A stretch of DNA of 64,000 nt from a virus (lineage: Duplodnaviria; Heunggongvirae; Uroviricota; Caudoviricetes). Position 1 is the first letter of the stretch, and every line of letters begins with the position of its first letter. The notes beneath the pieces are model-generated. The model was given only the letters and a program-made list of their open reading frames with translations, was not told where the DNA came from and searched no databases. Made by a program: the position numbers and the translations under genes. Positions 1 to 48,368 of the stretch are shown in pieces. Where the stretch lies: positions 49,999 through 113,998 of IMG/VR virus record IMGVR_UViG_3300015360_001243; one strand, written 5' to 3'.

Positions 1-1437
1 AAGTTCAACGGATCTTTGCGTGGTGAGATTGTCATGTTGAAGAGTGTTCATCAAAAACACTTTGCCGATAAGTCTAATCCTCGTAATGCTGCCTCTGGCA
101 CCTCTAAACGATTGGATGGTGTTGGTGTTGATAGGTTGAACATCATTTTTTACCAAGTTCTTGGTGATGTAGAGTTTGATACTGAGATCGATCAGTTCGA
201 ATGGCTAGAGAAGCACGCCCTGGGAGTTCCTAACTACTGGAAGTTCAAGACGGTTGATGATGTCAATACACATTGGCGTGATTACCAAGATAACAAGCGC
301 GATAAACTTGACTATGATATCGATGGGCTTGTCATTCGCTTGAATGAATTGGCTATGCAACTCACTTGGGGAGATAAGGATCTTCGTCCACTAGGGGCTA
401 TTGCCTTCAAGTTTGATAACGAGATGCGCGAATCAACCATCCGAGATATCATCTGGCAGGTTGGTAACAGCGGGCGTATCACTCCAGTGGCTGTTGTTGA
501 CCCCGTTCAACTGGTTGGAGCTATGGTTTCCCGAGCTAGCATTTATAATCTAGCTTACATTGAGGAGTTGGGCCTGGATATTGGGGCTAAGGTATTGGTT
601 GCACGAGCCAATGACGTCATTCCTCGCATTGAAGAGTTGGTCAAAGGTACTGGTAAGACCGCTAAGGGCCCTCAATTCTGCCCTGAGTGTGGTGGATTGA
701 CCAAGATGGATGGTGAAAACCTGATGTGTGGCAACGTCAAGCATTGCCGCGCCCAGATTATTGGCCGTATCAAGAACTGGGTTGCTGAGTTGAACCTACT
801 TGAATGGGGCGATACGTTGATTGAGAAGCTTGTTGATGCTAAGAAAATCAAGACAGTAGCAGACCTTTACACTCTAAAGGTTGATGATATTGCTAATCTT
901 GATCGTCTTGGAGAGAAGACAGCCGAGAAATGCCTTAACATCTTGAAAGCGAACATGGAAGTTCCTCTGGAAGTCTTCCTTGGAGCTTTGAGCATTCAGA
1001 TGATTGGTCAATCTACCATCAAAGCCATTATGAATGCTGGTTGCGATACGCTAGAGCGGTTCGGACAGTTGAGTGCAGCTAACTTTGAACAGGTCCCTGG
1101 CGTTGGTCCTACCAAAGCACAGTTCCTTGCGGCTGGATTAAAGAACAATCAGGCAGTTATCAATGCTCTTATTGACAACGGCGTTACTATTAAGGGTATT
1201 GTTCAGGGCGTTATGACTGGGAAGTCTATCTGTTTTACTGGCGCCATGAAGAACAAGCGCCCAGTTCTAGAGAAGATGGCCGCTGAACAGGGTGCAGAGG
1301 TCAAAGGATCTGTTGGTAAGGGGCTTACGTACCTTGTCATCGCTGATCCGAATAGCACTTCTTCTAAAGCAGTAGCTGCTCGTAAGTTCGGAACTACTTT
1401 GATTTCTGAAGATGCCTTTCTTGACTTAGTAAAGTAA
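1..1437 (+). CDS. ligA: NAD+-dependent DNA ligase (LigA), C-terminal ~480 aa; the 5' end runs off the window
   Basis: The reading frame is open from nt 1. It has the adenylation-domain motif SNPRNAASG (E. coli ANPRNAAAG), the OB-fold region, the four-Cys zinc finger CPECGG..C..C, an HhH region and a C-terminal BRCT-like GKSICFTG segment. Confidence 0.9.
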   Translation, partial: KFNGSLRGEIVMLKSVHQKHFADKSNPRNAASGTSKRLDGVGVDRLNIIFYQVLGDVEFDTEIDQFEWLEKHALGVPNYWKFKTVDDVNTHWRDYQDNKRDKLDYDIDGLVIRLNELAMQLTWGDKDLRPLGAIAFKFDNEMRESTIRDIIWQVGNSGRITPVAVVDPVQLVGAMVSRASIYNLAYIEELGLDIGAKVLVARANDVIPRIEELVKGTGKTAKGPQFCPECGGLTKMDGENLMCGNVKHCRAQIIGRIKNWVAELNLLEWGDTLIEKLVDAKKIKTVADLYTLKVDDIANLDRLGEKTAEKCLNILKANMEVPLEVFLGALSIQMIGQSTIKAIMNAGCDTLERFGQLSAANFEQVPGVGPTKAQFLAAGLKNNQAVINALIDNGVTIKGIVQGVMTGKSICFTGAMKNKRPVLEKMAAEQGAEVKGSVGKGLTYLVIADPNSTSSKAVAARKFGTTLISEDAFLDLVK

Positions 1438-1453
1438 CCTAATTGTCATTTAG

Positions 1454-2287
1454 TTGTTGCCAATATTAGGCGATATACTGATGAAGGATAAATATCTTTG
1501 GTACACTGATACTCATTTGGATAAGGTTCCACCCTGGACTCTGATGCGTTTCATCTATCATGTGATAAAACAGAGCCCTCATGGTGTCTTTTTAACGGGA
1601 GACATCTCTACTGGCCCACTATTATGCTTTCATTTAAGGCTATTAGCCAAATATATTAAATGCCCAATCTACTTTGTGCTTGGTAATCATGATTATCACT
1701 TCACTAGCATGGCCAAACAACACGAAAAAATTCGTGAGCTTTGCAAAGAGTGTCCTAATTTAATTTGGTTAACTGATTCAAACGTAATTGATCTTAATCA
1801 TGAAGTAGGGCTGATTGGTACCGAAGGCTGGTATGATGCTCAATTAGGTAATTCAAACTATCTAAAGTACACTCTAGATCGTTTTTTAGTGAAAGAATTT
1901 CGTACTTTACCTTCTTTAGAAGAGCAAATCGCAAGTTTTCGGGACTTAGCAGAGCAAAGTTGCAAGTTTTTGGAAGATAAACTAGAGAAAGCATTAGCTC
2001 AAGACTTCAAAACGATCTACATTATGACTCATTTTCCTCCTTGGAAAGAAGCTACTCGTGATGTTGGTAAGCTTTTGGAGAAATTCTGGCTCCCATACAA
2101 CGTTAATTATGGTCTTGGCCAGATGATTGAGCGTGTAATGAAAGAACGAAAGAAGAGAAATGTCACCGTGTTAGCGGGCCATACTCATACTGATGCTTGG
2201 ATTCACGTTGCTCGCAACATAGAATGTAAAGTTAACAAAGCTAAATACTACGGTTACTTAAGGAACGAAGAGCATATCTTTATCTGA
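1454..2287 (+). CDS. calcineurin-like metallophosphoesterase
   Basis: Motifs GDIS, GNHDYH and LAGHTHTD match the metallophosphoesterase superfamily. That superfamily includes the ADP-ribose/CDP-alcohol diphosphatase ADPRibase-Mn. Confidence 0.7.
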   Translation: MLPILGDILMKDKYLWYTDTHLDKVPPWTLMRFIYHVIKQSPHGVFLTGDISTGPLLCFHLRLLAKYIKCPIYFVLGNHDYHFTSMAKQHEKIRELCKECPNLIWLTDSNVIDLNHEVGLIGTEGWYDAQLGNSNYLKYTLDRFLVKEFRTLPSLEEQIASFRDLAEQSCKFLEDKLEKALAQDFKTIYIMTHFPPWKEATRDVGKLLEKFWLPYNVNYGLGQMIERVMKERKKRNVTVLAGHTHTDAWIHVARNIECKVNKAKYYGYLRNEEHIFI

Positions 2288-2326
2288 ACTACTAATTCTG
2301 ATATATAGTCCTAGTAAGAGGATTAT

Positions 2327-2602
2327 ATGTACGATATTTGTTTTGATTTGCATGATATGCATCAGACTGTAGAGGAGTCTGATCAATTAGAAGAAGAATT
2401 TTGGGCCATTGGTGAAGTTTTTGACTTCGATTTAGTGGTGGATGAAGACTTTATAGATGATTATCCCGTAATTGTCAAACAAACTAAAGTAAAAACAAAG
2501 GGAAATGGTTTGACTTGCCCTAAGTGCGGCGAGATATATCCCTACGCTGAGTCAAATCAGCCTGACGGTTCCTTCAAGTGTTGGAGCTGCCGAAACTTTT
2601 AA
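2327..2602 (+). CDS. hypothetical protein with an acidic N-terminus and a CxxC..CxxC zinc ribbon
   Basis: ORF with CPKCG and CWSC pairs, in the plus-strand gene chain. Confidence 0.4.
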   Translation: MYDICFDLHDMHQTVEESDQLEEEFWAIGEVFDFDLVVDEDFIDDYPVIVKQTKVKTKGNGLTCPKCGEIYPYAESNQPDGSFKCWSCRNF

Positions 2603-2615
2603 ATTGGAATAGGCT

Positions 2616-2921
2616 ATGCTAGATTGCATTATTACGGTCGCCGCCATCTTTGGTTTGGCATTTTTGATTAAAGAGTCCGATGGCCCCTGGGGAATCATAG
2701 CAAAGGCTCGAAATTTCTTGATGACCAACAAATATGTTGGTGTTTTCTTCTATAAATTATTGGATTGCTACTTTTGTTTAGGTTTTCATTGTGGATGGGT
2801 GGCATACCTGTTGCATGAACAGACTTATTCTCCATCACTTTTTGTCTTGTGGGGGCTTGCGGGGGGCGTCATCAGCCTTACATTCGATATGCTGTTAAGA
2901 AAACTATCGCCATCTCAGTAA
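2616..2921 (+). CDS. hypothetical membrane protein
   Basis: Two or three hydrophobic helices and a CYFCLGFHCGW motif. Confidence 0.4.
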   Translation: MLDCIITVAAIFGLAFLIKESDGPWGIIAKARNFLMTNKYVGVFFYKLLDCYFCLGFHCGWVAYLLHEQTYSPSLFVLWGLAGGVISLTFDMLLRKLSPSQ

Positions 2922-2942
2922 TTACTTTTTTCACATATTGGT

Positions 2943-3140
2943 GTGAAGAGATTGTTGCTGATTTTAATACCCCTGTTGCTTGATTGTTCTAGTATTGTGA
3001 ACAATCCAATGGATATACCTGACAAGGTAAAGGTGTATTGTCAGGGCGATCTTTGTTGTTACCCTGTCGATACCACGGCAATGGCCTGTACTAACGCTTT
3101 TAGCGGACAAAGATTCATGATTTACATCAAAATCTATTGA
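2943..3140 (+). CDS. small secreted protein or lipoprotein candidate
   Basis: Signal-peptide-like N-terminus MKRLLLILIPLLLDCSS, Cys-rich. Confidence 0.3.
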   Translation: MKRLLLILIPLLLDCSSIVNNPMDIPDKVKVYCQGDLCCYPVDTTAMACTNAFSGQRFMIYIKIY

Positions 3141-3278
3141 CAAATTTCCATCTCCAAACTATATTGTTTGTCGAGAAAAAGATAACTCTATTACATTAGT
3201 ATTATGACCCTAGTGGTCATCCGAATTAAATCTATAAATTGACTCAATATAGTCGCCCGAATAAAAGATAGAGGAAAA

Positions 3279-4769
3279 ATGGCCCTGCCTGTTATTAAAG
3301 ATCAGTCTATTATCGACAAGATTAAGGTTGTGGAGTCCGTCAAGCGTTGGACTCTGAACTTTACCGACATCATCAACAACAATAACAAGTTCTACAACCT
3401 TGAAATTGTCAAGTCTACTGACTCCAAGCTGTATCTTTATACAGTTTATGGTCGAGTTGGAGCTAATGGCGCCAAGGAATACAGGTCTTGCGGCTCTTTG
3501 TCTGATGCCGAGAAAGAAGCCGAGAGCATTGTTAAGGCAAAATCCAAAAAGGGTTACGTTGAAGTCAAGCTTGCTAAGGCAGACATTGGCTCTGAGCTTG
3601 GTAAAGCGAAGGTTGATACCTCCGTTACCGTGGAATCCCTTAGGAAAGCGGGCGTTCAAGTTAAGGAAGAACCTCAAGCAGCAAGTAAGCTGCATCCTGA
3701 AGTGCAGGATCTTGTTCGTACGTGGTTCGGCGTTACTCAAGAGTTCATTGAATTGAACCTTGACACCAAGAAGTGTCCTCTTGGACAGCTCTCTCTTGAT
3801 CAAATTGATAAGGCAAAGCAGATTCTTGAAGAGGCTCGCCTGATTGTTGCTGCTAAGAAGCCTGATGTTCAGGAGTTGAACAAGCTAACTAGCTCGTATT
3901 ACTCCAACATCCCTCACGTTCTTGGTCATTGCATCAATGCAGACCTTCTTCGCTTCGATGATAACCCGAAGATTGATAAAGCTTTTGATATTCTTGACGT
4001 CTTTGCTGACGCTAAGAACGTTCAGGCTGTTATTTCCAAGAAGTCTGCGGTCGATTCGCAGTATGCAACCCTGAATGCAGACCTGGAATGGGTGGATCCT
4101 ACGGATCCCACCTTCAAGTGGATTGATAAGATGGTACATGACACACGCGCATACAACCACCAGGGCCTTGGCAAGCTGAAAGTTCACAAGATTTTCCGCC
4201 TCAAGCGAAATAGTGAAGATAAGAACTTCATTGAAACGGCTCAGCGCATTGCTAAGGAGTGTGGAAAGCATTCTCCGTCTGAGACTTACGCTAAGTTGGT
4301 TGCTACTCGCCCTGATGTGCCCAAGGCTCTTCAGGAGCTTTATCAGCATGCCAATGTTGCGCCGGGCTGGCACGGCACTCGTAGAGCTAATATGATTGGT
4401 ATTACGACTAAGGGACTTCTGATTCGTCCTTCTGGCGTCATTCACGCTGGCTCTATGTATGGTGACGGTATTTATTGGGCTACTAATAGTACTAAATCTA
4501 TCAACTACTGTGACGTCAAAGGTTCCTATTGGGCTCAAGGCACCAACAAGACAGCTTATCTGTTCTTGGGTGACGTGGCTTATGGTAACTACAAGTATGC
4601 TAATGGGTCTCATCTTTACACTAAGAAGAATATTGCGCCCGCTCACTCGGTTTTTGCCCGCGCTGGTGGCGGGGTTCTGAATGATGAGCTGATTACTTAC
4701 ACTCCGACTGGCCCTGAGCAGCAACATGCTCTTCGCTACATCATCGAATTTGAAACACAGGTCAAATAA
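3279..4769 (+). CDS. poly/mono-ADP-ribose polymerase homologue (WGR domain + PARP regulatory + PARP catalytic domain)
   Basis: The N-terminal WGR pattern is WTLNF..KFYNLEIV..YTVYGRVGANG..KKGYVEV. The C-terminal catalytic signature is WHGTRRANMIGITTKGL (H-G), HAGSMYGDGIYWATNSTKS (S, Y) and NDELITY (catalytic E), which aligns with PARP1 HGS...GIYFA...YNEYIVY. Confidence 0.85.
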   Translation: MALPVIKDQSIIDKIKVVESVKRWTLNFTDIINNNNKFYNLEIVKSTDSKLYLYTVYGRVGANGAKEYRSCGSLSDAEKEAESIVKAKSKKGYVEVKLAKADIGSELGKAKVDTSVTVESLRKAGVQVKEEPQAASKLHPEVQDLVRTWFGVTQEFIELNLDTKKCPLGQLSLDQIDKAKQILEEARLIVAAKKPDVQELNKLTSSYYSNIPHVLGHCINADLLRFDDNPKIDKAFDILDVFADAKNVQAVISKKSAVDSQYATLNADLEWVDPTDPTFKWIDKMVHDTRAYNHQGLGKLKVHKIFRLKRNSEDKNFIETAQRIAKECGKHSPSETYAKLVATRPDVPKALQELYQHANVAPGWHGTRRANMIGITTKGLLIRPSGVIHAGSMYGDGIYWATNSTKSINYCDVKGSYWAQGTNKTAYLFLGDVAYGNYKYANGSHLYTKKNIAPAHSVFARAGGGVLNDELITYTPTGPEQQHALRYIIEFETQVK

Positions 4770-4770
4770 A

Positions 4771-5037
4771 ATGACTACCTACAAAGTTATGAAAGTTTTT
4801 GATTGTCAATCTGGCATGTCTGATGAAGTTAAAAAAGCATTCTTTTCATTTTATGAATGCGGTAATGACGTTTATGTTACTTGGACGGTTCAAGAGGATG
4901 ATACTGAATATGACGGCGATGATGAATTTGCTGTTAATAGGCGCCTGGTTGATGCTTGGCTTATGGAAAATGGGGCCGAGGGACGTGCCGAAGACAAGTA
5001 CAACGGGGAAACCGTTCTAATCAATCATTGGTGGTAA
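4771..5037 (+). CDS. hypothetical acidic protein
   Basis: ATG immediately after the PARP stop; the start could instead be 4726. Confidence 0.4.
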   Translation: MTTYKVMKVFDCQSGMSDEVKKAFFSFYECGNDVYVTWTVQEDDTEYDGDDEFAVNRRLVDAWLMENGAEGRAEDKYNGETVLINHWW

Positions 5038-5038
5038 T

Positions 5039-5368
5039 ATGAGTACAAATTTCCATGCAGAAATCGGATATGGGTTTCAACTTACCGATGAAAAATTAAT
5101 TGAAAATGTTAATGAAGGTAAAGTAAAACTGCCTGTTCATTTAGCTATGATGTGGGCAGGAGATGCCTTTTCTGGTGACATGGAAACTTTTATTGTTGTT
5201 AAAGGTAGCGCGTCTGGAGTTGCTTCTTGGCAATGCTATTCGCGTATGATTGCCCACGAAGAATTAGTTGCTGTTGATGAGTGGGAAACACAACTTCTAA
5301 CTTGGGCTGATGAAAATAATATTGCTCACGCGGCTATTGGCTGGTGGCTTTGCACATCTCTTTCGTGA
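5039..5368 (+). CDS. hypothetical protein
   Basis: ORF in the gene chain; the ATG overlaps the upstream stop. Confidence 0.45.
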   Translation: MSTNFHAEIGYGFQLTDEKLIENVNEGKVKLPVHLAMMWAGDAFSGDMETFIVVKGSASGVASWQCYSRMIAHEELVAVDEWETQLLTWADENNIAHAAIGWWLCTSLS

Positions 5369-5374
5369 GGAACT

Positions 5375-5857
5375 ATGATTGAAATTGTATCTGGTGACAT
5401 TTTTGACTCGACAGAAAAGTATCTCTGCCACCAGTGCAACTGTGTGACTAATAAATCTGCGCATTTTGCGAAAGACGTATTTGCTAGGTATCCATACGCC
5501 GATATTTATACCGGCAGGACAGAACCAAATAAACCTGGAACCATTGAAGTGAGGGGTAACGGGGAAGACCAGCGATACGTCATTAACTTATTGGGACAGT
5601 ACTACCCAGGAAAACCCAAGTACCCATACTCCACTCTTGATGGAGTTCATATTAGACAAACGTATTTTTACAGATGTCTCCTCCGTATAGCTCAACTTCC
5701 CAACTTGGAGAGCGTCGCTTTTCCTTGGAGAATCGGTTGTGGGGCTGCGGGTGGAGTATGGGAACATTATCTTGGCAATCTAACTAACTTTGCTAATCAC
5801 GTTGAGAATACTCAAGGTGCCAAAGTTCTTATCTATAGACGTGAAGGTGATGAATGA
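5375..5857 (+). CDS. macro-domain protein, TARG1/OARD1-like (ADP-ribose glycohydrolase candidate)
   Basis: GDIFDS..LCHQCNCVTNKSAHFAKDVF and RIGCGAAGGVWEHY align with human TARG1 GDLFAC..HCISEDCRMGAGIAVLF and RIGCGLDRLQWENV. Confidence 0.7.
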   Translation: MIEIVSGDIFDSTEKYLCHQCNCVTNKSAHFAKDVFARYPYADIYTGRTEPNKPGTIEVRGNGEDQRYVINLLGQYYPGKPKYPYSTLDGVHIRQTYFYRCLLRIAQLPNLESVAFPWRIGCGAAGGVWEHYLGNLTNFANHVENTQGAKVLIYRREGDE

Positions 5858-6198
5858 AAGTATGTGAAACATTTACGGCTAACATTTATCTTGGTTTAAA
5901 GGCGGGCTATGATGGCGAAGAAACATCCGTAGATGTTGTTCGCCGCTGGTTAGAAGTTTATTGTAATGAAGTGAAACTGGGTGTAACCCTTACCAAGACA
6001 GAATTCATTTATGTAGATGGTGGGGAGCCGGGCGTTATTGTTGGGCTCATCAATTATCCGCGCTTTCCTAAACCAGTTTCGGAAATAAAAACAACGGCGC
6101 TGGTTATTGCTCAAGGTCTACTTAATTTGTGTTCTCAAGAAAGAGTATCTGTTGTGTTCTCTGACATAACAGTTATGGTGGAAAAAATCGAATCATGA
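5854..6198 (+). CDS. hypothetical protein
   Basis: ORF with an ATGA overlap onto the macro gene. Confidence 0.45.
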   Translation: MKVCETFTANIYLGLKAGYDGEETSVDVVRRWLEVYCNEVKLGVTLTKTEFIYVDGGEPGVIVGLINYPRFPKPVSEIKTTALVIAQGLLNLCSQERVSVVFSDITVMVEKIES

Positions 6199-6431
6199 CT
6201 TCTTATGAAAATTCAAATGGTTTCCTACTAGGTCTTGTACTTTTAGCTAAATATAGATTAGATGATTTTACAGTAAATGTAATTGAAACGTCAACTATTT
6301 CTATTAATGGTCTTAGGTCTGTATCTAAAGAAGATATGGAAGATCTAAAGCTTTTCGGATGGAATGTCGGAAAAGATAAAGACGGCGGCAGTTGGGCCGA
6401 GTTTTTCAAACTAGAATACGTGGATACCTAA
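6195..6431 (+). CDS. hypothetical protein
   Basis: ORF with an ATGA overlap. Confidence 0.4.
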   Translation: MTSYENSNGFLLGLVLLAKYRLDDFTVNVIETSTISINGLRSVSKEDMEDLKLFGWNVGKDKDGGSWAEFFKLEYVDT

Positions 6432-6432
6432 G

Positions 6433-6864
6433 ATGACAATCAAGTTTTATAAAACCAATGAACCCTATGGTTTCTTAAATAATTTCAAAAAAGCTAGAAT
6501 GTTTGTCTATGGTCGTTGGTGGAACAATGTCGAAGCTCCCTATCAATCTCAAAAGACCAATGTTCTTGATGAACAAGATGCTATCTGGGCCTGCGTAACT
6601 CCTAGAGAAGCAAGGGACCTTGGACAAAAAGTTCATATGAGAGAGTTTTGGGACAAATATAAAGACCAGGCTATGTACGAATGCTGTATGGCTAAGTTTC
6701 TCCAGCATCCCGATCTTCGAGCTAAGCTAATGGCAACGGGTGAGGAAGAGATAATGGAAGATAGTCCAGTCGATTGGTATTGGGGATGTGGTAAAGATGG
6801 AACCGGGAAGAATATGCTCGGGAAAACTCTCATGAAAATTCGTGAAGAACTAAAAGGCGAGTGA
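6433..6864 (+). CDS. NADAR-domain protein (YbiA-like; ADP-ribose / NAD-related N-glycosidase)
   Basis: FYKTNEPYGFLNNF, APYQSQKT (cf. SxEHYFQAxK), KFLQHPDLRAKLMATG, SPVDWYWGCGKDGTGKNMLGKTLMKIRE. This is a strong match to the NADAR/DUF1768 pattern. Confidence 0.8.
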   Translation: MTIKFYKTNEPYGFLNNFKKARMFVYGRWWNNVEAPYQSQKTNVLDEQDAIWACVTPREARDLGQKVHMREFWDKYKDQAMYECCMAKFLQHPDLRAKLMATGEEEIMEDSPVDWYWGCGKDGTGKNMLGKTLMKIREELKGE

Positions 6865-6968
6865 TTTCGTCGACTTGAATTTTTAATTTTCGGGCCCTTG
6901 ATTTTTGTTATGAAATCCACATATTGTGGATGCGCGGGAAGCCATCCCTACAAATTAGGAGATAATAT

Positions 6969-7430
6969 ATGTCAACGTTAAATACTATAGTGCAAGAGGT
7001 TGTTGAGTCGTTTATGAAGGATGAGGAGCTGTTTACTGCTCTCGATGTGAGCAATAAGGTCAAGCTGTCGCAACCCTTTGCTCGTCATGGTGAAGTTAGG
7101 GACGCAGTGCGTGAGCTTTTCACTTCTGTGTTGCAGCCTGCAAGCTGGGCCCGCTCACCGATCAAGGTGACCCTTGCCGATGGCAGTCAACAGACGGCTC
7201 TTCTGTACCATCCGCTTTCCGCTTCTTGGGACTTGGATGATAAGTATGATGACCAGAAGCGATCTCAAGCGGCCGTTAAGACTACTTCTGCCAAGGCGCC
7301 TACGACTGCTGGTGTTTCGACTCCGGTTGTTGCAGCTCCCGTGGCGAAGGTTATTCCTGCTCCGGTTGCAGTCAAGGATCAGTGGGCTAATCTGTTCAGC
7401 AGTCAGCCGTCTCTGTTCCCCCGAAAGTAA
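6969..7430 (+). CDS. hypothetical protein with an Ala/Pro/Val-rich C-terminus
   Basis: ORF with a good GGAG spacing upstream of the ATG. Confidence 0.45.
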   Translation: MSTLNTIVQEVVESFMKDEELFTALDVSNKVKLSQPFARHGEVRDAVRELFTSVLQPASWARSPIKVTLADGSQQTALLYHPLSASWDLDDKYDDQKRSQAAVKTTSAKAPTTAGVSTPVVAAPVAKVIPAPVAVKDQWANLFSSQPSLFPRK

Positions 7431-7815: not shown

Positions 7816-8622
7816 ATGTCAAGGCACTTAATTCTGTATCGTGGTATCGAATTTGAAAAAGATGAACAGGAAGCTGCTAATTGGTTTTTCAAAACTACAA
7901 ACCGAAGACCTGATATCACCAGCGGTGATATGGTCATAGGGCGATATTCGCTTTGGCCATTCTATTCCGACCAGGCAAAAGACATTGATTATGTTGGGGC
8001 TCGTTTAATCAACGACTACAATCAACATCTTTATGTGGCCGATTTAGGGAATTATGTAACGGATCTTGGAAAGCTTACGCCTCGGACATGGCGAAGCCTG
8101 GAGGATTTGCCCGAGAAAGGACCCTTTGTTCTCAAAGGAGAAACTAACTCGCGCAAATCCAATTGGAAGCGTGACATGTTCGCCGAAACCAAAACAGAAG
8201 CTATCATGGTAGCTAATCGACTGGCAGACGATAGTTTGATCGGTCATCAAAAGATTTACATTCGTCAGTACGTCCCCCTTGTCAAATACATGGATGGAGT
8301 TAATGGTATGCCAGTCACCAAGGAGTTTCGCTTCTTTGTTGCTTTTGGCTTTGTCATTAGTGGTGGATATTATTGGCAAAACTATGTTGATGATATTGGT
8401 GGCACTCCAGATCATAATGAAGTTCCTCGGGAATTTCTTCAAGAAGTCATTGAGGCAGTTGGCGACCAATCTAATTTTTATACAATTGATGTGGGTCAAA
8501 CTGAAACTGGTGAGTGGATTGTTATTGAATTGAATGAAGGTCAACAAGCAGGGCTTTCTTGCAACGATCCTTTTAAATTGTATGAGAACCTAAGTACGGT
8601 ACTTAAAAGCAAAGGCCTGTGA
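7816..8622 (+). CDS. possible ATP-grasp fold protein
   Basis: The C-terminal segment YTIDVGQTETGEWIVIELNEGQQAGL resembles the ATP-grasp D..G..vLEVN..PG motif. This is a weak call. Confidence 0.35.
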   Translation: MSRHLILYRGIEFEKDEQEAANWFFKTTNRRPDITSGDMVIGRYSLWPFYSDQAKDIDYVGARLINDYNQHLYVADLGNYVTDLGKLTPRTWRSLEDLPEKGPFVLKGETNSRKSNWKRDMFAETKTEAIMVANRLADDSLIGHQKIYIRQYVPLVKYMDGVNGMPVTKEFRFFVAFGFVISGGYYWQNYVDDIGGTPDHNEVPREFLQEVIEAVGDQSNFYTIDVGQTETGEWIVIELNEGQQAGLSCNDPFKLYENLSTVLKSKGL

Positions 8623-9241: not shown

Positions 9242-9445
9242 ATGGCTACATTTCGAGAGGCAAATCAAGTTCGTATTTCACTAAAGATTAAACTTTCCAT
9301 GCATGCATGGTATAGTTCGAGCGCTGTAGCCAGTACAGATGATGGATACTATGTAATTATTCACGTATCTCGTCTGGATAACCAAATTAGAAAGATAATT
9401 TCACCAGTTATCAATGGTGTGAGCGTTAAAACGGAATTAGAATGA
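9242..9445 (+). CDS. hypothetical small protein
   Basis: ORF with an ATGA overlap onto the next gene. Confidence 0.35.
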   Translation: MATFREANQVRISLKIKLSMHAWYSSSAVASTDDGYYVIIHVSRLDNQIRKIISPVINGVSVKTELE

Positions 9446-10092
9446 AAATTGTAGCAATTTCAGATACACATTCAAAGCATCGCACTTTAACTGTTCCTGA
9501 TGCTGATACAATCGTGTGCGCTGGTGATATTTCTTTTAAAGGAGAATTTAATATCGTAGAAGATTTTGTAAATTGGATGGCAGCACTTCCTATTAAAAAT
9601 AAAGTAATGATTTTTGGTAATCATGAAGTTGGAATGGCGCATGGCCTTAAAAGAGAGGCTGCTTTAAAGCTTTTACAAGACTCTGGAATTATCTATCTAG
9701 AAGATAGTGGAACAGAGATTGATGGAATTAAATTTTGGGGCTCCCCAGTTCAACCTAGATTTTTTGATTGGGAATGGAATAGAAATCGTGGTCCAGATAT
9801 TAACGCACATTGGAAATTAATTCCAGCAAATACTAATGTATTGATTACGCATGGCCCGCCTCATGGGATTCTAGATTTAGTGAACAATTCTATTGGAAGA
9901 GATCCTCATCAAGGTTGTGAAGATTTAAGAAGAAAAGTTGATACGTTAGATCAATTGAAACTTCATGTTTTTGGACATTTACACCGTGAAGGTGGAAATC
10001 AATCTATCATTGATAACAAAATTTTTGTTAATGCTGCTATTTGTGATGATGCATATAATCCAAGTCGCCCACCCATTCTAATAGAGATCTAA
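9442..10092 (+). CDS. calcineurin-like metallophosphoesterase (second copy)
   Basis: GDISFKGE, GNHE, ITHGPPHG and GHLHREG motifs. Confidence 0.75.
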   Translation: MKIVAISDTHSKHRTLTVPDADTIVCAGDISFKGEFNIVEDFVNWMAALPIKNKVMIFGNHEVGMAHGLKREAALKLLQDSGIIYLEDSGTEIDGIKFWGSPVQPRFFDWEWNRNRGPDINAHWKLIPANTNVLITHGPPHGILDLVNNSIGRDPHQGCEDLRRKVDTLDQLKLHVFGHLHREGGNQSIIDNKIFVNAAICDDAYNPSRPPILIEI

Positions 10093-10410: not shown

Positions 10411-10669
10411 GAATAAGCATTCACATTTGATTGGTCGTACTTTTGGCCAACTCAAACTTGTAGATATTGAAGAATTTAAATCCCTAACTAATAGGCCGGG
10501 ATATAGAATTCATCTTGAATGCAAATGCGGAAAACTTTGTTCATACCCCTTTAAAAGACTAAATGGTATTATGAGGGGCAGCCAGGTGTCTTGCGGTTGT
10601 GTTCGTAAAGATAAGTGGCGCAAAGGCTTTTATGCTTTTATGACTGAGCAAAATAAAGAAGGCAAATGA
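10400..10669 (+). CDS. hypothetical Cys-rich small protein
   Basis: CKCGKLC...CGC motifs. Confidence 0.4.
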   Translation: MMTENKHSHLIGRTFGQLKLVDIEEFKSLTNRPGYRIHLECKCGKLCSYPFKRLNGIMRGSQVSCGCVRKDKWRKGFYAFMTEQNKEGK

Positions 10670-11136
10670 TCGTTTCATTTACAGGGCATAGACCAGATAA
10701 GTTGGGCGGATATCAAATTCCCAACCCAACTTATCGTCATGTTTGCCAGCAGATTGATAAGGTTCTTCGAGAGTTAAAACCAGACAAGATTATTACTGGC
10801 ATGGCTCTCGGAGTAGACCAGTGGGCAGCAAACATTGCTCTCAAGATGGAGATACCCTACATTGCCGCTGTGCCCTTTCTAGGACAGGAGAAGGCCTGGC
10901 CACCTAGTTCTCAAAGGGTATTTAATACATTGCTCAAGTGGGCTAGCGAGGTCGTTATTGTTAGTGAGGGCGACTATCATCCTGCTAAGATGCAGATTCG
11001 TAATGAATGGATGGTCGATAGGGCAGATAAAGTCATTGCTATTTGGGATGGAACCAAAGGTGGGACTGGTAATTGTGTAGATTATGCCAAGTCAAAAAAC
11101 AAGGAAATTATTTTTATTAACCCTCACATTGACTAA
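10666..11136 (+). CDS. SLOG-type Rossmann protein (YpsA/DprA-like, DUF1273-like)
   Basis: TGHRP...GMALGVDQWAANIAL...IWDGTKGGTGNCVDYAK pattern. Confidence 0.4.
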   Translation: MIVSFTGHRPDKLGGYQIPNPTYRHVCQQIDKVLRELKPDKIITGMALGVDQWAANIALKMEIPYIAAVPFLGQEKAWPPSSQRVFNTLLKWASEVVIVSEGDYHPAKMQIRNEWMVDRADKVIAIWDGTKGGTGNCVDYAKSKNKEIIFINPHID

Positions 11137-11178: not shown

Positions 11179-11262
11179 GCCGAAGTGGTGGAATGGCAGA
11201 CACACTGGATTCAAAACCCAGCGCAGCGATGCATGAGGGTTCGAGTCCCTCCTTCGGCACCA
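11179..11262 (+). tRNA. tRNA-Leu (anticodon CAA), class II with a long variable arm, CCA encoded
   Basis: The acceptor stem GCCGAAG/CTTCGGC is a perfect 7 bp. The T arm is GAGGG-TTCGAGT-CCCTC. The anticodon loop TTCAAAA has an A-C mismatch at positions 31-39. Confidence 0.7.
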
Positions 11263-11289
11263 GTTAATTTCTCTATTTGAAAGACAGAG

Positions 11290-11754
11290 ATGTTTAATAA
11301 CATAAAGAATTTGTTGACCTTGACAGTACGAGTTCAAGACTATAACATAGTCGCACAAGACCCGGCTTTCATCAGGACTCTTCGATTACTTACTTTAACA
11401 CCTACCTCAGGGATGAATTACGAGCTAGATAATTTTGCTCGCATTCGTTTGGAGAGAGATGTCAAATGTAAAATTCTAACTGCTTACCGCAGCAATGAAT
11501 TGGTAGGTTGGGCCCTGGTTTCTAAGGAGCCAACTGATTTTTGTTTCGCTAACGCTTACGCTGGATTCAATCCTAAAGATGGATCTCTCTTTCAAGTTTA
11601 TGTTCAGCCTCAACATCGGCGGCAAGGAATTGCGGCTGAGTTACTAAAAGTTGCAAACGAACACTCTGATAACGGACTATGTGTTTGTCCCTGGGATGAA
11701 ACCAGTGAACTCTTTTATCGGAGAAAAAATAGTTATAACGCAAAATTACTTTAA
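11290..11754 (+). CDS. GNAT-family N-acetyltransferase (start uncertain)
   Basis: GNAT motif A region VYVQPQHRRQGIAAELL. Confidence 0.45.
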   Translation: MFNNIKNLLTLTVRVQDYNIVAQDPAFIRTLRLLTLTPTSGMNYELDNFARIRLERDVKCKILTAYRSNELVGWALVSKEPTDFCFANAYAGFNPKDGSLFQVYVQPQHRRQGIAAELLKVANEHSDNGLCVCPWDETSELFYRRKNSYNAKLL

Positions 11755-11792
11755 ATTCTATAGGAATAAGCTGATATATACGTCAGCATCAT

Positions 11793-11876
11793 GCTACCAT
11801 GGTGGAATGGCAGACACGCTGGTCTTAGAAGCCAGTGCCGCAAGGCGTGGGGGTTCGAGTCCCTCTGGTAGCACCA
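11793..11876 (+). tRNA. tRNA-Leu (anticodon TAG), class II, CCA encoded
   Basis: Acceptor stem GCTACCA/TGGTAGC. The anticodon stem is CTGGT/GCCAG with loop CTTAGAA. The T arm is GGGGG-TTCGAGT-CCCTC. Confidence 0.8.
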
Positions 11877-11879
11877 AAT

Positions 11880-11956
11880 GCTCAAGTGATGGAATTGGCA
11901 TACATACTACTCTCAGAAAGTAGGTTTTAGGAGTTCGACTCTCCTCTTGAGCACCA
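11880..11956 (+). tRNA. tRNA with anticodon CAG (Leu codon CUG) but a short variable arm and a weak D arm; identity ambiguous
   Basis: The acceptor stem GCTCAAG/CTTGAGC is perfect and CCA is encoded. The anticodon stem is CTACT/AGTAG with loop CTCAGAA. The T arm is AGGAG-TTCGACT-CTCCT. The D stem has only about 3 bp. Confidence 0.5.
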
Positions 11957-12202
11957 ATGATTGAATTAATTGATAACTTTATAGTAGGAACTGATCAGCT
12001 TGAATTAGAGGCATTGCAAGTCTTGCTTACCGAATTTTCTCCTGAATTTACCTTTTCAATCCTTGAGAACGAACATCTAGAAGTAGATCCTGCATCATTC
12101 ACTTTGATTATAGAAATACAAAATCCATCTAATTCCCCAGATATGAGTTCTTTTTTAGAGTTTCTTTCAAGTAAAATTGAGGAAGTAAATCAGCAGTCAT
12201 AA
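11957..12202 (+). CDS. highly acidic small protein (DNA-mimic candidate)
   Basis: This 81-aa ORF begins right after the CCA of the upstream tRNA. It is strongly acidic with few basic residues. Confidence 0.45.
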   Translation: MIELIDNFIVGTDQLELEALQVLLTEFSPEFTFSILENEHLEVDPASFTLIIEIQNPSNSPDMSSFLEFLSSKIEEVNQQS

Positions 12203-12207
12203 AGAAT

Positions 12208-12291
12208 GGGATCGTGGCGGAACGGCATACGCACTGGTCTAAGAAGCCAGCACCTCACGGTTTAAGGGTTCAAGTCCCTTCGATCCCACCA
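12208..12291 (+). tRNA. tRNA-Leu (anticodon read as AAG; TAA not excluded), class II, CCA encoded
   Basis: Acceptor stem GGGATCG/CGATCCC. The anticodon stem is CTGGT/GCCAG with loop CTAAGAA. The T arm is AAGGG-TTCAAGT-CCCTT. Confidence 0.7.
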
Positions 12292-12298
12292 AATAGAA

Positions 12299-12335
12299 AA
12301 AGCTTCCAGGGAAACCTAGAAGCTTTATTTATTTT
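12299..12335. terminator. bidirectional rho-independent terminator between convergent transcription units
   Basis: The hairpin AAAGCTTC..(loop)..GAAGCTTT is followed by TATTTATTTT. It sits between the plus-strand tRNA and the stop of the minus-strand gene. Confidence 0.6.
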
Positions 12336-12347
12336 GAATTGAGTAGA

Positions 12348-13235
12348 TTAAAATCCTAGATCAGGTGGTTTTGGTGTATTCTGAGCTACTTGTTGTGCTG
12401 GTTGAGTCGTATTTGGGGTAACAACTGCTTTATCACTGTAAGATGGATCATTGTAGGCAACTTGCATTCCAGGGAATTTTTTCTTGAATTCTTTTCCGGC
12501 AGCTTCTCCAACTTGTGCATCAGGAGTATTGGCAGCCAAAGAAAAATCTTGCTTAAACTTATCAAGAGCCTTACGGGTAGCTGGGCCCAAAGTACCTTCA
12601 GTTCCATTAGTATTGTAACCTAATTGAGTTAAAGCCTTTTGAACATATGGATCAATTTTTCCATATCCACCTGCTGGGCGAGCAGTATTTGCGGCTGGTG
12701 CAGCACCTGGAGTTTGAGTTACATTTCCCTGCCACGCAGTAGCAACGCCTTCTTGTTTACCAACAAGATTAATTGCTTTTTGGTATTGGTCGGGACTAAT
12801 CTGTTGTAGCCTCATTAAAGTAGCTAGATTCTCTGGTTTTTTAGCTAGTTGTTCAGGGGTCATTTGAGCGGGAGAAACACCTTCGCCACCATAATCACGT
12901 GGGCTACCCGACATACGTTGACCAAACTTTGAGATAATAGTATCAAATTGTTCAATAAAAGACTTCTTCTTTGCAAATGGGTTTCCTTTTGCGAATGGGT
13001 TGCCCTTGGCAAATGGATTTGGTTTCTTAGATTTTTTTTCTTTTGAGCCTGACTTGCTTTTCTCGGAAGATGACGTATCTTCTTTCTTAACTGGTTTTTT
13101 GGACTTCTTTTCTTCTTTCTTTTTGGTGCTTTTTTCCAAAGAATCAGAAGCTGTCTTCTCGAAGTTACTTACTAAAAATAAAATTTGATCTGCTTTGTTA
13201 GACATTAAAACCTCTGAGACGGACGTTATATTCAA
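12348..13235 (-). CDS. peptidoglycan-binding-domain protein with a Lys/Glu/Ser-rich N-terminal half and tandem GNPFAK repeats
   Basis: VQKALTQLGYNTNGTEGTLGPATRKALDKFKQDF matches the PG_binding_1 pattern. There is a triple GNPFAK repeat and a KKEEKKSKKPVKK low-complexity stretch. Confidence 0.6.
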   Translation of the reverse strand: MNITSVSEVLMSNKADQILFLVSNFEKTASDSLEKSTKKKEEKKSKKPVKKEDTSSSEKSKSGSKEKKSKKPNPFAKGNPFAKGNPFAKKKSFIEQFDTIISKFGQRMSGSPRDYGGEGVSPAQMTPEQLAKKPENLATLMRLQQISPDQYQKAINLVGKQEGVATAWQGNVTQTPGAAPAANTARPAGGYGKIDPYVQKALTQLGYNTNGTEGTLGPATRKALDKFKQDFSLAANTPDAQVGEAAGKEFKKKFPGMQVAYNDPSYSDKAVVTPNTTQPAQQVAQNTPKPPDLGF

Positions 13236-13361
13236 AACTACTAATAACTAGGCAAGTTTATTGCCAGACCGTATTAATATATGGTGTACGTTGTCATTCA
13301 GTAATGATGGCTGACTGTGAATCAGCTAAAGCGGGGGCAGCACCCGTCGTACACCCCAAAT

Positions 13362-13436
13362 GCCTCGTTCGTCTACTGGCTAGGATGCTAGGTTTTCACC
13401 CTGGCGAAAGGGGATCGAAACCCCTACGAGGTACCA
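13362..13436 (+). tRNA. tRNA-Glu (anticodon TTC), CCA encoded
   Basis: The acceptor stem GCCTCGT/ACGAGGT has a G-U pair at 1-72. The anticodon stem is CTAGG/CCTGG with loop TTTTCAC. The T arm is AGGGG-ATCGAAA-CCCCT. It overlaps the spurious ORF 13304..13618. Confidence 0.55.
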
Positions 13437-13650
13437 TGAGTAAGTTGGTTCTGTTAAGTCTACTTCTAACTGGATGTTTCTTTGATCACCCTCAGTATTG
13501 CCATACTCATGGCGATTGTTTAGATGGTCAGTACTGTCCAGCAATTAGATCGCCAGAACAACTACCGTTGATTTGTAAGGGAAAAGCAATCGTCACTCCA
13601 ATGAAATTGGGCGATTAATCTGTCAATAAGTCGATATATAAAGTACACCT

Positions 13651-13726
13651 GGCCCCATCATCTAATGGTTCAGGATATCAGCCTCTCACGCTGAGTATAC
13701 GGGTTCGAATCCCGTTGGGGTCACCA
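13651..13726 (+). tRNA. tRNA-Glu (anticodon CTC), CCA encoded
   Basis: Acceptor stem GGCCCCA/TGGGGTC. The anticodon stem is TCAGC/GCTGA with loop CTCTCAC. The T arm is ACGGG-TTCGAAT-CCCGT. Confidence 0.7.
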
Positions 13727-13739
13727 AGTAAGTTGTTAT

Positions 13740-13816
13740 GTGCCTGTAATTCAACTGGATAGAAATGCTGCCTTCTAAGCAGTAAGTTGGGGGTTCGAAT
13801 CCCTCCAGGCATGCCA
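13740..13816 (+). tRNA. tRNA-Arg (anticodon TCT), copy 1, CCA encoded
   Basis: Acceptor stem GTGCCTG/CAGGCAT. The anticodon stem is GCTGC/GCAGT with loop CTTCTAA. The T arm is GGGGG-TTCGAAT-CCCTC. Confidence 0.7.
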
Positions 13817-13827
13817 AGCAAGTTTAT

Positions 13828-13902
13828 GTCGTTGTAGTCTAAGGGATAGGCGTCTGCCTTCTAAGCAGAATTATGTAGGTTCGAATCCTACCAGCGATAC
13901 CA
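13828..13902 (+). tRNA. tRNA-Arg (anticodon TCT), copy 2, CCA encoded
   Basis: Acceptor stem GTCGTTG/CAGCGAT. The anticodon stem is TCTGC/GCAGA with loop CTTCTAA. The T arm is GTAGG-TTCGAAT-CCTAC. Confidence 0.7.
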
Positions 13903-13914
13903 GTAAGTTGTTAT

Positions 13915-13991
13915 GTGCCTATAGCTCAACTGGATAGAGCGTCGGTCTACGAAACCGAAGGTTGAAGATTCGAATTCTTCTAGGCATGCCA
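13915..13991 (+). tRNA. tRNA-Arg (anticodon ACG), CCA encoded
   Basis: Acceptor stem GTGCCTA/TAGGCAT. D stem GCTC/GAGC. The anticodon stem is TCGGT/ACCGA with loop CTACGAA. The T arm is GAAGA-TTCGAAT-TCTTC. Confidence 0.75.
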
Positions 13992-14048
13992 GGTTGTGGG
14001 AGATATATCCCTTAATAGATTATGTCCATTAGGTGCCCACGGTCTTAT

Positions 14049-14123
14049 GTCTCTATAGTGAAAAGGATATCACGATTGTCTTCGAAACAATCAGTACAGG
14101 TTCGATTCCTGTTGGAGATGCCA
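14049..14123 (+). tRNA. tRNA-Arg (anticodon TCG), CCA encoded
   Basis: Acceptor stem GTCTCTA/TGGAGAT. D stem GTGA/TCAC. The anticodon stem is ATTGT/ACAAT with loop CTTCGAA. The T arm is ACAGG-TTCGATT-CCTGT. It lies inside the 5' extension of ORF 14033. Confidence 0.75.
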
Positions 14124-14170
14124 TAGCGTCGAGAGGCGCTATTTTTATTTGTATTATTGGAAAAATTATT

Positions 14171-15133
14171 ATGAGAATCCTATCAGGCATTCAGCCATCA
14201 GGAACAATTCATATTGGCAATTACTTTGGAATGATTAAGCCGCTGCTTAGTTTTCAAGATAAGGGTGAAGTGTTTGGGTTCTTGGCCGATTATCATTCAA
14301 TGACCTCTCTCTTCGATGCTAAAGAAAGAAAAGAGAATACTTTAGAGGCTGCCACTACGCTCTTAGCTTGTGGTCTAGATCCTTTAAAGACAACCTTCTT
14401 CAAGCAATCAGATTTGCCCGAAGTAACTGAGCTGGCCTGGATTCTTTCTACTGTAACACCTATGGGCTTGCTAGAAAGATGCCATAGCTATAAAGACAAG
14501 GTAGCCAAAGGAATTTCTTCCAATCATGGGCTCTTTGCCTATCCAGTTCTCATGGCGGCAGACATTCTATTGTACCAATCTAATTTGGTTCCAGTAGGAA
14601 AAGATCAACAACAGCATTTAGAAGTAACCAGAGATATTGCCGTCAAGTTCAATGAGAAGTATGGTAACACTTTTGTTTTACCGGAACCTCTTATTCAAGA
14701 GCAGGTAGCGGTAGTTCCCGGAACTGATGGACAGAAAATGTCTAAGAGCCATGGAAACACTATTGAAGTTTTCGGAGATGAAAAGGTTCTGAAAAAGAAA
14801 ATCATGTCTATCGTTATGGATAGCCGTCCTCCTACGGAACCCAAACCAGATGCAGATAAAAATATTGCCATTCAATTATTGAAATTAGTAGCCCCAGCAG
14901 ATGTAGCTTCAGAAACTGAAATCAAATTACGAGAAGGTAATCTTGGTTATGGTGCATTGAAAGTAATTCTGTTTGAACACTATTACAATTATTTTGAAAA
15001 GCCAAGAGGGCTGTATCGTGAATTGAAAGATAACCCGGCTTATGTAGAGCAGTATCTTCAAGATGGTGCTGAGGATGCTCGTTATCACGCCGCTATAACT
15101 ATGGGACTCGTTAGAAAAGCTGTAGGCTTGTGA
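14171..15133 (+). CDS. trpS: tryptophanyl-tRNA synthetase
   Basis: MRILSGIQPSGTIHIGNYFG (HIGH-type motif), PVLMAADILLY, VPVGKDQQQHLEVTRD and KMSKS. This is a close match to the bacterial TrpRS layout. The start is moved to 14171 because the longer ORF overlaps a tRNA. Confidence 0.92.
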   Translation: MRILSGIQPSGTIHIGNYFGMIKPLLSFQDKGEVFGFLADYHSMTSLFDAKERKENTLEAATTLLACGLDPLKTTFFKQSDLPEVTELAWILSTVTPMGLLERCHSYKDKVAKGISSNHGLFAYPVLMAADILLYQSNLVPVGKDQQQHLEVTRDIAVKFNEKYGNTFVLPEPLIQEQVAVVPGTDGQKMSKSHGNTIEVFGDEKVLKKKIMSIVMDSRPPTEPKPDADKNIAIQLLKLVAPADVASETEIKLREGNLGYGALKVILFEHYYNYFEKPRGLYRELKDNPAYVEQYLQDGAEDARYHAAITMGLVRKAVGL

Positions 15134-23466: not shown

Positions 23467-23510
23467 AGCCCGCAGTGATTGATATAAAGTCACTGCGGGC
23501 TTTTGCTTTT
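23467..23510 (+). terminator. rho-independent terminator after rIIB
   Basis: The hairpin AGCCCGCAGTGA..TCACTGCGGGCT is followed by TTTTGCTTTTT. Confidence 0.8.
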
Positions 23511-23520
23511 TGAGGTCAAT

Positions 23521-48291: not shown

Positions 48292-48365
48292 GCTAGTTTC
48301 GTATAGTGGCATTACGGCGCCTTTGTAACGCGCTCACGACAGTTCAATTCTGTCAACTAGCTCCA
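48292..48365 (+). tRNA. tRNA-Thr (anticodon TGT), CCA encoded
   Basis: Acceptor stem GCTAGTT/AACTAGC. The anticodon loop is TTTGTAA. The T arm is GACAG-TTCAATT-CTGTC. The D stem is shifted (CGTA/TACG). Confidence 0.6.
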
Positions 48366-48368
48366 TAA

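Follow-up and report, generated by a model that had tools for sequence, protein, structure and literature searches.

Gene content of the locus

The window analysed here is a 64,000-nucleotide stretch of Caudoviricetes DNA, positions 49,999 to 113,998 of IMG/VR virus record IMGVR_UViG_3300015360_001243, and its first 11 kb form a closely packed run of plus-strand genes. At the left end of this run lie genes for an NAD+-dependent DNA ligase (LigA), a metallophosphoesterase (MPE1), a PARP, a macro domain protein and a NADAR protein (Table 1). The original prediction of five linked genes on one strand within 7 kb was confirmed, with all five present on the plus strand at the predicted positions.

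The PARP carries a WGR domain (2.1e-18, 66.6 bits), a helical regulatory domain (PARP_reg, 1.9e-18, 67.3 bits) and a catalytic domain (PF00644, 5.1e-19, 69 bits against a cut-off of 26.7), all above the Pfam gathering scores. Residues H365, Y399, Y410 and E470 align with H862, Y896, Y907 and E988 of PARP1 in its established numbering. H365 and Y399 fall on the PARP1 motifs WHGSR and GIYFA and Y410 on the Tyr of NYC, while E470 pairs with the Glu of YNEYIVY in a family-profile alignment. All four are invariant in 18 sequences, including the distant PARPs of Klebsiella phage 05F01 and Xanthomonas phage XacN1. With three domains above threshold and the H-Y-E residues present, the predicted PARP with a WGR domain holds. 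The eponymous Trp of the WGR domain is an invariant Tyr here (YGRVG), and an insertion of ~34 residues (about 320-356, KECGK..PS..YAK.V..RPDVPK) separates the helical and catalytic domains; neither PARP1 nor the PARPs of the Klebsiella and Xanthomonas phages have it.

The nearest solved relatives of the PARP are PARP1 and PARP2 (E 3e-46, family profile). It shares the core of WGR, helical regulatory and ADP-ribosyltransferase (ART) domains, and the H-Y-Y-E catalytic residues, with PARP1/2/3, including the bacterial PARPs of Herpetosiphon aurantiacus and Clostridioides difficile CD160, but differs from them in being virus-encoded, in lacking zinc fingers and BRCT, in having YGR instead of WGR, and in its ~34 extra residues. 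Bacterial PARPs are reversed by PARGs of their own (PMC8120803), whereas no PARG gene was seen near the phage PARP. T4 Alt, ModA and ModB are likewise phage-encoded, NAD+-using ARTs, but belong to another clade (R-S-E, arginine-specific, mono-ADP-ribosylating) and have neither a WGR nor a regulatory domain (PMC9503650); no homology between them and the phage PARP was detected, and the analogy is functional only. The jumbo-phage PARPs (PARTs; e.g., XacN1 BBA65562.1) are of the same family and architecture. The best matches in cultured phages are those of XacN1, Xoo-sp13 and Klebsiella phage 05F01, at only 27-29% identity. No NADAR adjoins the PARP in any of these three; a distant macro homologue lies 5.5 kb upstream of it in 05F01, and none lies within 6 kb in XacN1.

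The NADAR protein matches Pfam PF08719 (9.5e-34, 117.4 bits against a cut-off of 35.1) and passes NCBIfam TIGR02464, a YbiA-type model named for a riboflavin-intermediate N-glycosidase (109 bits against 73.7). Its best solved relative is E. coli YbiA (2b3w, 1e-22). The invariant residues E34, K41, K77, E109, D114 and W117 match E43, K50, R93, E125, D130 and W133 of the ADP-ribose-bound NADAR of Phytophthora nicotianae (PMC11543638), and E109 also aligns with the Glu in LVEHT of YbiA. Since its last strand carries Glu, the protein was placed in the YbiA subfamily; the same position is Asp in DarT1-linked NADARs, the DarG1 antitoxins (PMC11125620, PMC11543638), and His in the T4 type (gp30.3/AdfN), which is likewise phage-borne (PMC11125620). 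Relative to the NADAR superfamily, it keeps the catalytic and ADP-ribose-binding residues, as the prediction of a NADAR domain requires, and lacks the N-terminal DNA-binding extension. All NADAR subtypes tested hydrolyse guanine-ADP-ribose on DNA in vitro, and a YbiA-type NADAR is the antitoxin of the H-Y-E-clade ART YarT (PMC11125620). A YbiA-type NADAR thus stands near an H-Y-E-clade ART both there and here.

The macro gene is the only one of the five without Pfam confirmation, scoring 12.7 bits against a cut-off of 22 for PF01661 (E=0.13). Weak sequence matches in the PDB were to Bacteroides BT1257 (2fg1/2afc) and Streptomyces SCO6735 (5e3b); the protein falls in phrog_335, a PHROG "phosphatase" family, and some homologues carry the JGI name O-acetyl-ADP-ribose deacetylase. 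An AlphaFold model was built with 36 homologues as input (pLDDT 86, pTM 0.85). The top Foldseek matches of this model were solely macro domains (alphavirus macro, TARG1, DarG), with the fold closest to the TARG1 and DarG structures, and on the model the protein belongs to the TARG1/DarG structural class. The position of the catalytic lysine (TARG1 K84, DarG K80) is occupied by an invariant Gln, Q75, and that of TARG1 D125 by A125; the K84/D125 numbering of the TARG1 sequence used proved consistent. The predicted TARG1/OARD1-type macro domain is therefore right as to fold, which the Foldseek matches to TARG1 and DarG support, and wrong as to active site, which with Q75 and A125 is of the SCO6735/BT1257 type. 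SCO6735 belongs to the TARG1/ALC1 branch and lacks the catalytic pair; it is DNA damage-inducible, and its known activity is the release of ADP-ribose from glutamate residues of proteins (PMC8120803). Compared with DarG, the phage protein also lacks the DarT-binding C-terminal domain.

Between the macro and NADAR genes lies a 114-aa protein with a Svi3-3-like fold, although its identity to the phage SAM (S-adenosylmethionine) lyase Svi3-3 and to the type III CRISPR SAM-AMP lyase is only 15-19%. Its family conserves a Q95-E96 pair, Y53, G56 and E58; the SAM-binding residues of Svi3-3 are G56, Y58, E69 and Q104, and any correspondence between the two sets is putative. Phages use SAM lyases to counter restriction-modification and BREX (PMC7877911), and the 114-aa protein is probably an anti-defence enzyme, as judged from its sequence and predicted fold. 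A role as a NADAR-specific partner, raised by its position next to NADAR in L011 and in the distant L037 (loci are given by our L numbers), was rejected in view of its SAM-lyase fold and its other neighbourhoods: elsewhere, in unrelated DNA-metabolism regions, members of the family are flanked by Mre11-like and SbcC-like genes and also occur close to genes for primase and nuclease. It therefore behaves as mobile cargo.

LigA enters the window with its 3' part, in which the NAD-type adenylation domain (DNA_ligase_aden, 3.6e-17), the OB domain (DNA_ligase_OB, 2e-23), HhH (HHH_5) and BRCT were recognised, as expected of the predicted NAD+-dependent ligase. Full-length LigA is 624-634 aa in identical or related contigs and 634 aa on L001, which bears an identical PARP; the N-terminal part with the adenylation lysine lies beyond the window and is present in L001. 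MPE1, which adjoins LigA in most relatives, has five metal-binding motifs (DxH, GD, GNH, H, GHxH) invariant in 14 homologues, and the claim of a calcineurin-like phosphoesterase stands (Metallophos, 44.7 bits). The further label "ADPRibase-like" is, on sequence comparison, no more than a superfamily statement: no PDB sequence matched at E<0.1, the best profile matches were GpdQ-type and insignificant (E=0.14), and NCBIfam gave only a sub-threshold "putative phosphoesterase" match, so that an ADPRibase-Mn (ADPRM) identity found no specific support.

The phage and its gene order in relatives

The phage had been described as T4-like, which the comparisons led us to reject. A megablast search of window positions 1-7000 against 50,697 phage records returned no DNA match, and the closest relatives of PARP and rIIA among deposited phages are uncultured huge phages of 462-595 kb. 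rIIA has at most 35% identity to T4-like phages, its best match being a 462-kb uncultured phage. A metagenome protein collection held hundreds of PARP relatives, of which the best 120 listed are 71-91% identical, some on 441-496 kb contigs; macro homologues reach a 511-kb contig, and IMG/VR has relatives on contigs of 433-481 kb. With no DNA match, a distant rIIA and relatives on 0.43-0.51 Mb contigs, the sequence places the phage among uncultured huge phages and outside Straboviridae. The rIIA/rIIB, RNA ligase and polynucleotide kinase genes of the window are not specific to T4-like phages, and 16 tRNAs, a tmRNA, IF3 and a class I aminoacyl-tRNA synthetase-like gene make up a set typical of huge phages.

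We compared 27 loci of this lineage with 58 distant phage PARP loci and 78 bacterial PARP-homologue loci. The lineage order is LigA, (MPE1), a small membrane protein, PARP, variable cargo, macro, NADAR and a 153-aa protein. It is kept in about 22-24 of the 27 lineage loci across 52-91% protein identity, with the catalytic residues of PARP, macro and NADAR preserved. Gene order is thus co-conserved in related phages, as the original prediction required, and since it recurs in about 25 related contigs, the clustering is not a chance feature of this window. Because the related contigs form one lineage, it counts as a single evolutionary event.

Within the block, macro and NADAR abut directly in many relatives (L021, L022, L025, L026), and PARP is set apart from them by 0.07-2.9 kb of variable cargo. 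Among the cargo genes of relatives are those for a radical SAM protein, UvdE (a UV-damage endonuclease) and a LAGLIDADG endonuclease; upstream of PARP, relatives also encode an HNH endonuclease and a methylase of the Dam type. NADAR is replaced by a GIY-YIG endonuclease in L018 (11982-12656, minus strand) and by an unrelated 188-aa open reading frame (ORF) in L024 (12259-12825). In L028 and L029, a sister group whose PARP is 56% identical, neither eraser lies within 10 kb of PARP. The block appears as a hot spot for mobile insertions (GIY-YIG, LAGLIDADG and HNH endonucleases). The radical SAM gene, absent from the window, directly follows PARP in cultured Klebsiella phage 05F01 (L009, 7268-8197) and lies near PARP in the huge-phage relatives L005 (9685-10620), L008, L012, L020 and L025.

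Outside the lineage, profile searches over ~10 kb detected NADAR at only 3, and the macro family at 5, of the 58 distant phage loci; the 78 bacterial loci yielded neither. NADAR occurs in 390 phage records and a PARP relative in 16. The juxtaposition of PARP, macro and NADAR is a conserved trait of one lineage and not a recurrent association.

Transcription unit and conserved box

From 3279 to 6864, neighbouring genes either overlap or stand no more than 6 nt apart, and the single sizeable gap, 138 nt upstream of PARP, is the only place with promoter-like elements. Co-transcription of PARP through NADAR, on which the original prediction relied, is therefore likely.

The gap contains a conserved 15-nt box, TTTGTCGAGAAAAAG (also written TTGTCGAGAAAAAGTT), then (TT), which precedes PARP in at least 17 of 26 lineage loci, with a TnnnAT-like hexamer exactly 17 nt past its TTGTCG; the copies ahead of PARP come from loci in the range L005-L030. 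The box is rare: the one other copy in the window, at 61405-61419 on the minus strand, precedes a minus-strand operon headed by a Dps-family gene. Relatives (L107-L165) have an exact copy 45-58 nt ahead of the start codon of a conserved 168-aa protein (MSQQVRLGDVLG...HHHFKDIAGGLR), whose identity as a UvsY-like mediator found no support in Pfam and PDB searches. The box is a probable specialised promoter or activator site, predicted from its sequence and placement, and looks to define a small regulon. A near-consensus sigma-70-like promoter match in the same gap was rejected as a lineage feature, since no relatives but the closest, L001-L003, share it. Likewise rejected was a reading of the box as an actinobacterial RecA-independent damage promoter (tTGTCRgtg-N8-TAnnnT), with the hexamer 17 nt away and not 11.

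Interpretation of the block

The explanation that we prefer, tentatively and at slightly less than an even chance, is that two units share one transcript. One is a break-sensing PARP, active in the same context as the ligase; the other, with macro, SAM-lyase-like and NADAR genes, is a cassette for counter-defence. The left end of the window is part of a collinear single-strand block of an uncultured huge phage, and 3279-6864 would be transcribed as one unit from the promoter-like elements in the 138-nt gap. By analogy with PARP1/2/3 and the DNA-dependent Herpetosiphon PARP, DNA nicks or breaks would switch the PARP on, and the active enzyme would consume NAD+ in modifying itself, other proteins or DNA ends with ADP-ribose. 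Lesions of the same type would be sealed by the NAD+-dependent ligase encoded upstream, with UvdE in the same context in relatives. The macro protein, of the DarG/TARG1/SCO6735 class, may strip ADP-ribose from thymine, DNA ends or acidic protein residues, and the YbiA-type NADAR from guanine; between them they would undo host toxins of the DarT2 and DarT1 types, and the SAM-lyase-like enzyme would destroy SAM or SAM-AMP. We infer the activation by breaks and the timing of expression, and all substrates are assigned from knowledge of the families. The persistence of PARP without NADAR (L018, L024) or without both erasers (L028, L029) argues for two separable units. The marks made by the PARP itself are a further possible target of macro and NADAR, though nothing in the evidence makes them a necessary one.

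Several points weigh against this explanation. The H-Y-E triad cannot tell mono- from poly-ADP-ribosylation. The macro domain is missing the catalytic lysine required by DarG and TARG1 (Q75), which makes activity on thymine-ADP-ribose doubtful, and its nearest relative of known activity, SCO6735, acts on protein glutamate (PMC8120803). E. coli YbiA and the T4 NADAR cleave guanine-ADP-ribose in vitro, yet in one study they did not rescue cells from DarT1 toxicity (PMC11125620). LigA lies at most ~8.4 kb upstream of PARP in 25 of the 27 lineage loci. In the distant set, 15 of 58 loci have LigA less than 7.5 kb from PARP, but this proximity outside the lineage is only about twice a rough expectation and is weak evidence; both genes may simply sit in a DNA-metabolism region of the genome. 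Finally, packing into one transcript and an order kept over 52-91% identity would fit a partnership of writer and erasers too.

Such a partnership, an integrated ADP-ribosylation module, was the original prediction. In this reading PARP would modify proteins or DNA of the host or the phage, and its dedicated erasers, macro and NADAR, would be co-transcribed with it as parts of a self-contained system of reversible signalling. We regard this reading as rather doubtful. The tightly packed unit from PARP through NADAR speaks for it, as do an order kept in most of the lineage loci with catalytic residues intact, the precedent of YarT-YbiA, in which an H-Y-E-clade ART is paired with a YbiA-type NADAR (PMC11125620), the pairing of bacterial PARPs with the hydrolase PARG, and the reversal of PARP products by TARG1-class macro domains (PMC8120803). 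This conservation nevertheless amounts to the one evolutionary event noted above; the cargo varies, with homing endonucleases, radical SAM, UvdE and a SAM-lyase-like gene interspersed, the four relatives named above have independently lost NADAR or, near PARP, both erasers, linkage to PARP is rare in distant phages and was not seen in the bacterial loci, and there is no evidence of PARPs modifying guanine, the known NADAR substrate. The claim of an integrated module is accordingly weak, and an obligatory one is possible but unsupported. A bolder form, which we think unlikely, would be a self-contained circuit in which a break-activated PARP marks DNA (ends or bases) or replication and repair proteins and the two hydrolases reset the marks, under a dedicated promoter box that also stands before at least one other conserved gene. 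If true, the circuit would be the first PARP-based DNA-damage signalling described in phage, and it could plausibly serve to model how eukaryotic PARP signalling arose from viral ancestors.

The hydrolases might instead degrade soluble ADP-ribose derivatives, together with the YpsA-type SLOG protein encoded downstream, and the PARP would have no part in this; possible targets are second messengers of immunity, toxic metabolites and the by-products of RNA repair that depends on NAD+. Such a role has been proposed in general for phage Macro, NADAR, SLOG and Nudix genes (PMC9503650, PMC7824862). It would suit the conservation of the SLOG gene in the lineage, the RNA-repair set of the window (polynucleotide kinase, RNA ligases, Thg1-like enzyme) and the NADAR score above the cut-off of the riboflavin-intermediate model. 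We nonetheless consider it decidedly unlikely: unrelated genes fill the ~4 kb from NADAR to the SLOG gene, every NADAR subtype tested to date acts on guanine-ADP-ribose DNA (PMC11125620), and the remaining window ORFs of at least 120 aa yielded no KptA/Tpt1, Nudix, Sir2 or NAD+-salvage gene, which led us to reject an RNA-repair link through KptA/Tpt1 and a local salvage, Nudix or Sir2 function. Still less probable, and in our estimate remote, is a toxin with its own immunity, in which the PARP is a takeover weapon once host DNA is broken, through a flood of ADP-ribose or a drain on NAD+, and macro and NADAR shield phage DNA and proteins. T4 takes over its host with ARTs (PMC8120803), Iyer et al. 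suggest that phage PARPs resemble T4 ARTs in action while adding longer chains (PMC7824862), and the toxin-antitoxin pair YarT-YbiA draws on the same classes of enzyme (PMC11125620). Against this, the phage depends on NAD+ for its own ligase, the PARP keeps autoinhibitory helical and DNA-sensing domains typical of regulated enzymes and not of free toxins, and the erasers are dispensable in some relatives that keep the PARP. Pfam scans of the window ORFs found no ART other than the PARP, and so no DarT-family ART beside a hydrolase, the arrangement of a DarTG-type system.

Relation to published work

All parts of the block belong to families already catalogued in large phages. PARPs were reported in a few jumbo phages by Iyer et al., including the same XacN1 protein, and were proposed as relatives or precursors of eukaryotic PARPs (PMC7824862). 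The PARP family is among the commonest viral ART families (PMC9503650), and Macro, NADAR, SLOG and Nudix genes co-occur in DNA viruses more often than by chance (PMC9503650, PMC7824862). A 2024 proposal has the PARP and NAD+-dependent ligase of jumbo phages ("NAD-jumbo" phages) serve phage DNA repair (PMC11662467). Phage NADARs neutralise DarTG1, and phage DarG2-like macro proteins neutralise DarTG2 (PMC11257639, PMC13309987, PMC11481870). The earlier statement that the system was not described thus fails for phage PARPs and for the co-occurrence of macro, NADAR and SLOG genes, and stands in that no experimental work on any phage PARP was found in the searchable literature.

In this lineage a compact PARP, its active site intact, stands near two candidate erasers that differ in chemistry. 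If macro and NADAR neutralise DarT2- and DarT1-type toxins, huge phages, a YbiA-type NADAR and a lysine-less macro domain would join the known cases of "orphan antitoxin" counter-defence; if it is the marks of the PARP that they reverse, the block would represent a new kind of viral DNA-damage signalling.

Table 1 Features of the window, with coordinates in window positions
Feature	Position	Strand	Description and basis
LigA, NAD+-dependent DNA ligase, 3' 479 codons	<1..1437	+	Pfam; 5' end beyond window edge
MPE1, metallophosphoesterase	1481..2287	+	Pfam Metallophos 2.7e-11, 44.7 bits against 21.5; phrog_1649
91-aa protein	2327..2602	+	C-terminal zinc-ribbon-like CxxC...CxxC; weak Pfam Zn_ribbon matches; in some relatives
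101-aa hydrophobic protein, probable membrane protein	2616..2921	+	Directly upstream of PARP throughout lineage
Sigma-70-like promoter match TTGACA-17-TATATT	3137..3165	+	11/12 positions
Conserved 15-nt box TTTGTCGAGAAAAAG	3167..3181	+	~100 nt upstream of PARP start codon
PARP	3279..4769	+	YGR-type WGR domain, helical regulatory domain, ART catalytic domain with H-Y-E triad
88-aa protein, variable cargo	4771..5037	+	No family match; homologue in only 4 related loci
109-aa protein, variable cargo	5039..5368	+	No family match; homologue in 1 related locus
Macro domain protein, 160 aa	5375..5857	+	TARG1/DarG/Poa1p structural class (model); SCO6735/BT1257-type active site (GQ...RIGCGAAGG)
SAM-lyase-fold protein, 114 aa	5854..6198	+	Svi3-3 / SAM-AMP-lyase-like; probable anti-defence enzyme, between macro and NADAR
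78-aa protein, variable cargo	6195..6431	+	No family match; homologue in 2 related loci
NADAR, YbiA subfamily	6433..6864	+	Pfam, TIGR02464, Glu in last strand
153-aa protein	6969..7430	+	Downstream of NADAR/PARP in all lineage loci; 23 homologues aligned
R2K-clade ATP-grasp enzyme	7816..8622	+	Pfam R2K_3 7.8e-21
MPE2, second metallophosphoesterase	9442..10092	+	Pfam Metallophos 3.3e-10
YpsA-type SLOG protein	10666..11136	+	Pfam YpsA 1.6e-18; beyond the segment of the original prediction
Dps-family protein	60817..61266	-	PDB 2d5k E=3e-5, dozens more Dps matches; Pfam only weak DUF5856

Other genes of the window

A homologue of the 101-aa protein, for which no family match was found, lies 0.3-1.5 kb upstream of PARP in 25 loci. 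The 153-aa protein consists of an N-terminal domain (LFTALDVSNxVK...ARHREVRD), a disordered Ala/Pro/Thr/Val linker and a C-terminal motif, DLWxxLFxxQPSLFPRK, which resembles the bacterial sliding-clamp-binding motif QLxLF; the protein is kept even where macro and NADAR are absent (L028, L029). The R2K ATP-grasp gene lies less than 10 kb from PARP in the lineage and in five distant loci (L010, L037, L075, L077, L080), XacN1 included, and the association of PARP with R2K looks at least as recurrent as that with NADAR. The SLOG gene is conserved 6.5-10 kb downstream of PARP across the lineage and extends the NAD+/ADP-ribose theme past 6864, the SLOG family being predicted to bind or process NAD+/ADP-ribose derivatives (PMC9503650).

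The 16 tRNAs, which form clusters, and the tmRNA (tag ANDNAFAPLALAA) lie at 11179-14123, 48292-48754, 49181-49532, 54552-54626 and 56592-56669, and one tRNA with anticodon CTA is a predicted reader of the amber stop codon. Translation and RNA-repair genes typical of huge phages lie in 14033-15133 and 24740-47735, among them the aminoacyl-tRNA synthetase-like gene (class I, Trp/Tyr-type) and genes for IF3, polynucleotide kinase, two RNA ligases, a Thg1-like enzyme and a nucleotidyltransferase. As called, the synthetase ORF probably has the wrong start, which overlaps a tRNA-Arg.

Two phage contigs in public metagenome-assembled genomes (MAGs) appear to be mis-binned. The lineage contig L166 (JBFWUT010000077.1), 6.4 kb long, has been assigned to a "Candidatus Berkiella sp." MAG; a host assignment from this binning was rejected, so short a contig being unreliable. 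L167 (JBBACR010000001.1), a huge-phage contig of 425 kb with a PARP gene, has been placed in a "Pacearchaeota archaeon" MAG. Adjoining rIIA/rIIB in the window is a PurZ-like adenylosuccinate-synthetase homologue (23503-24711; phrog_1211, 6e-85), which hints at a possible 2-aminoadenine DNA chemistry.

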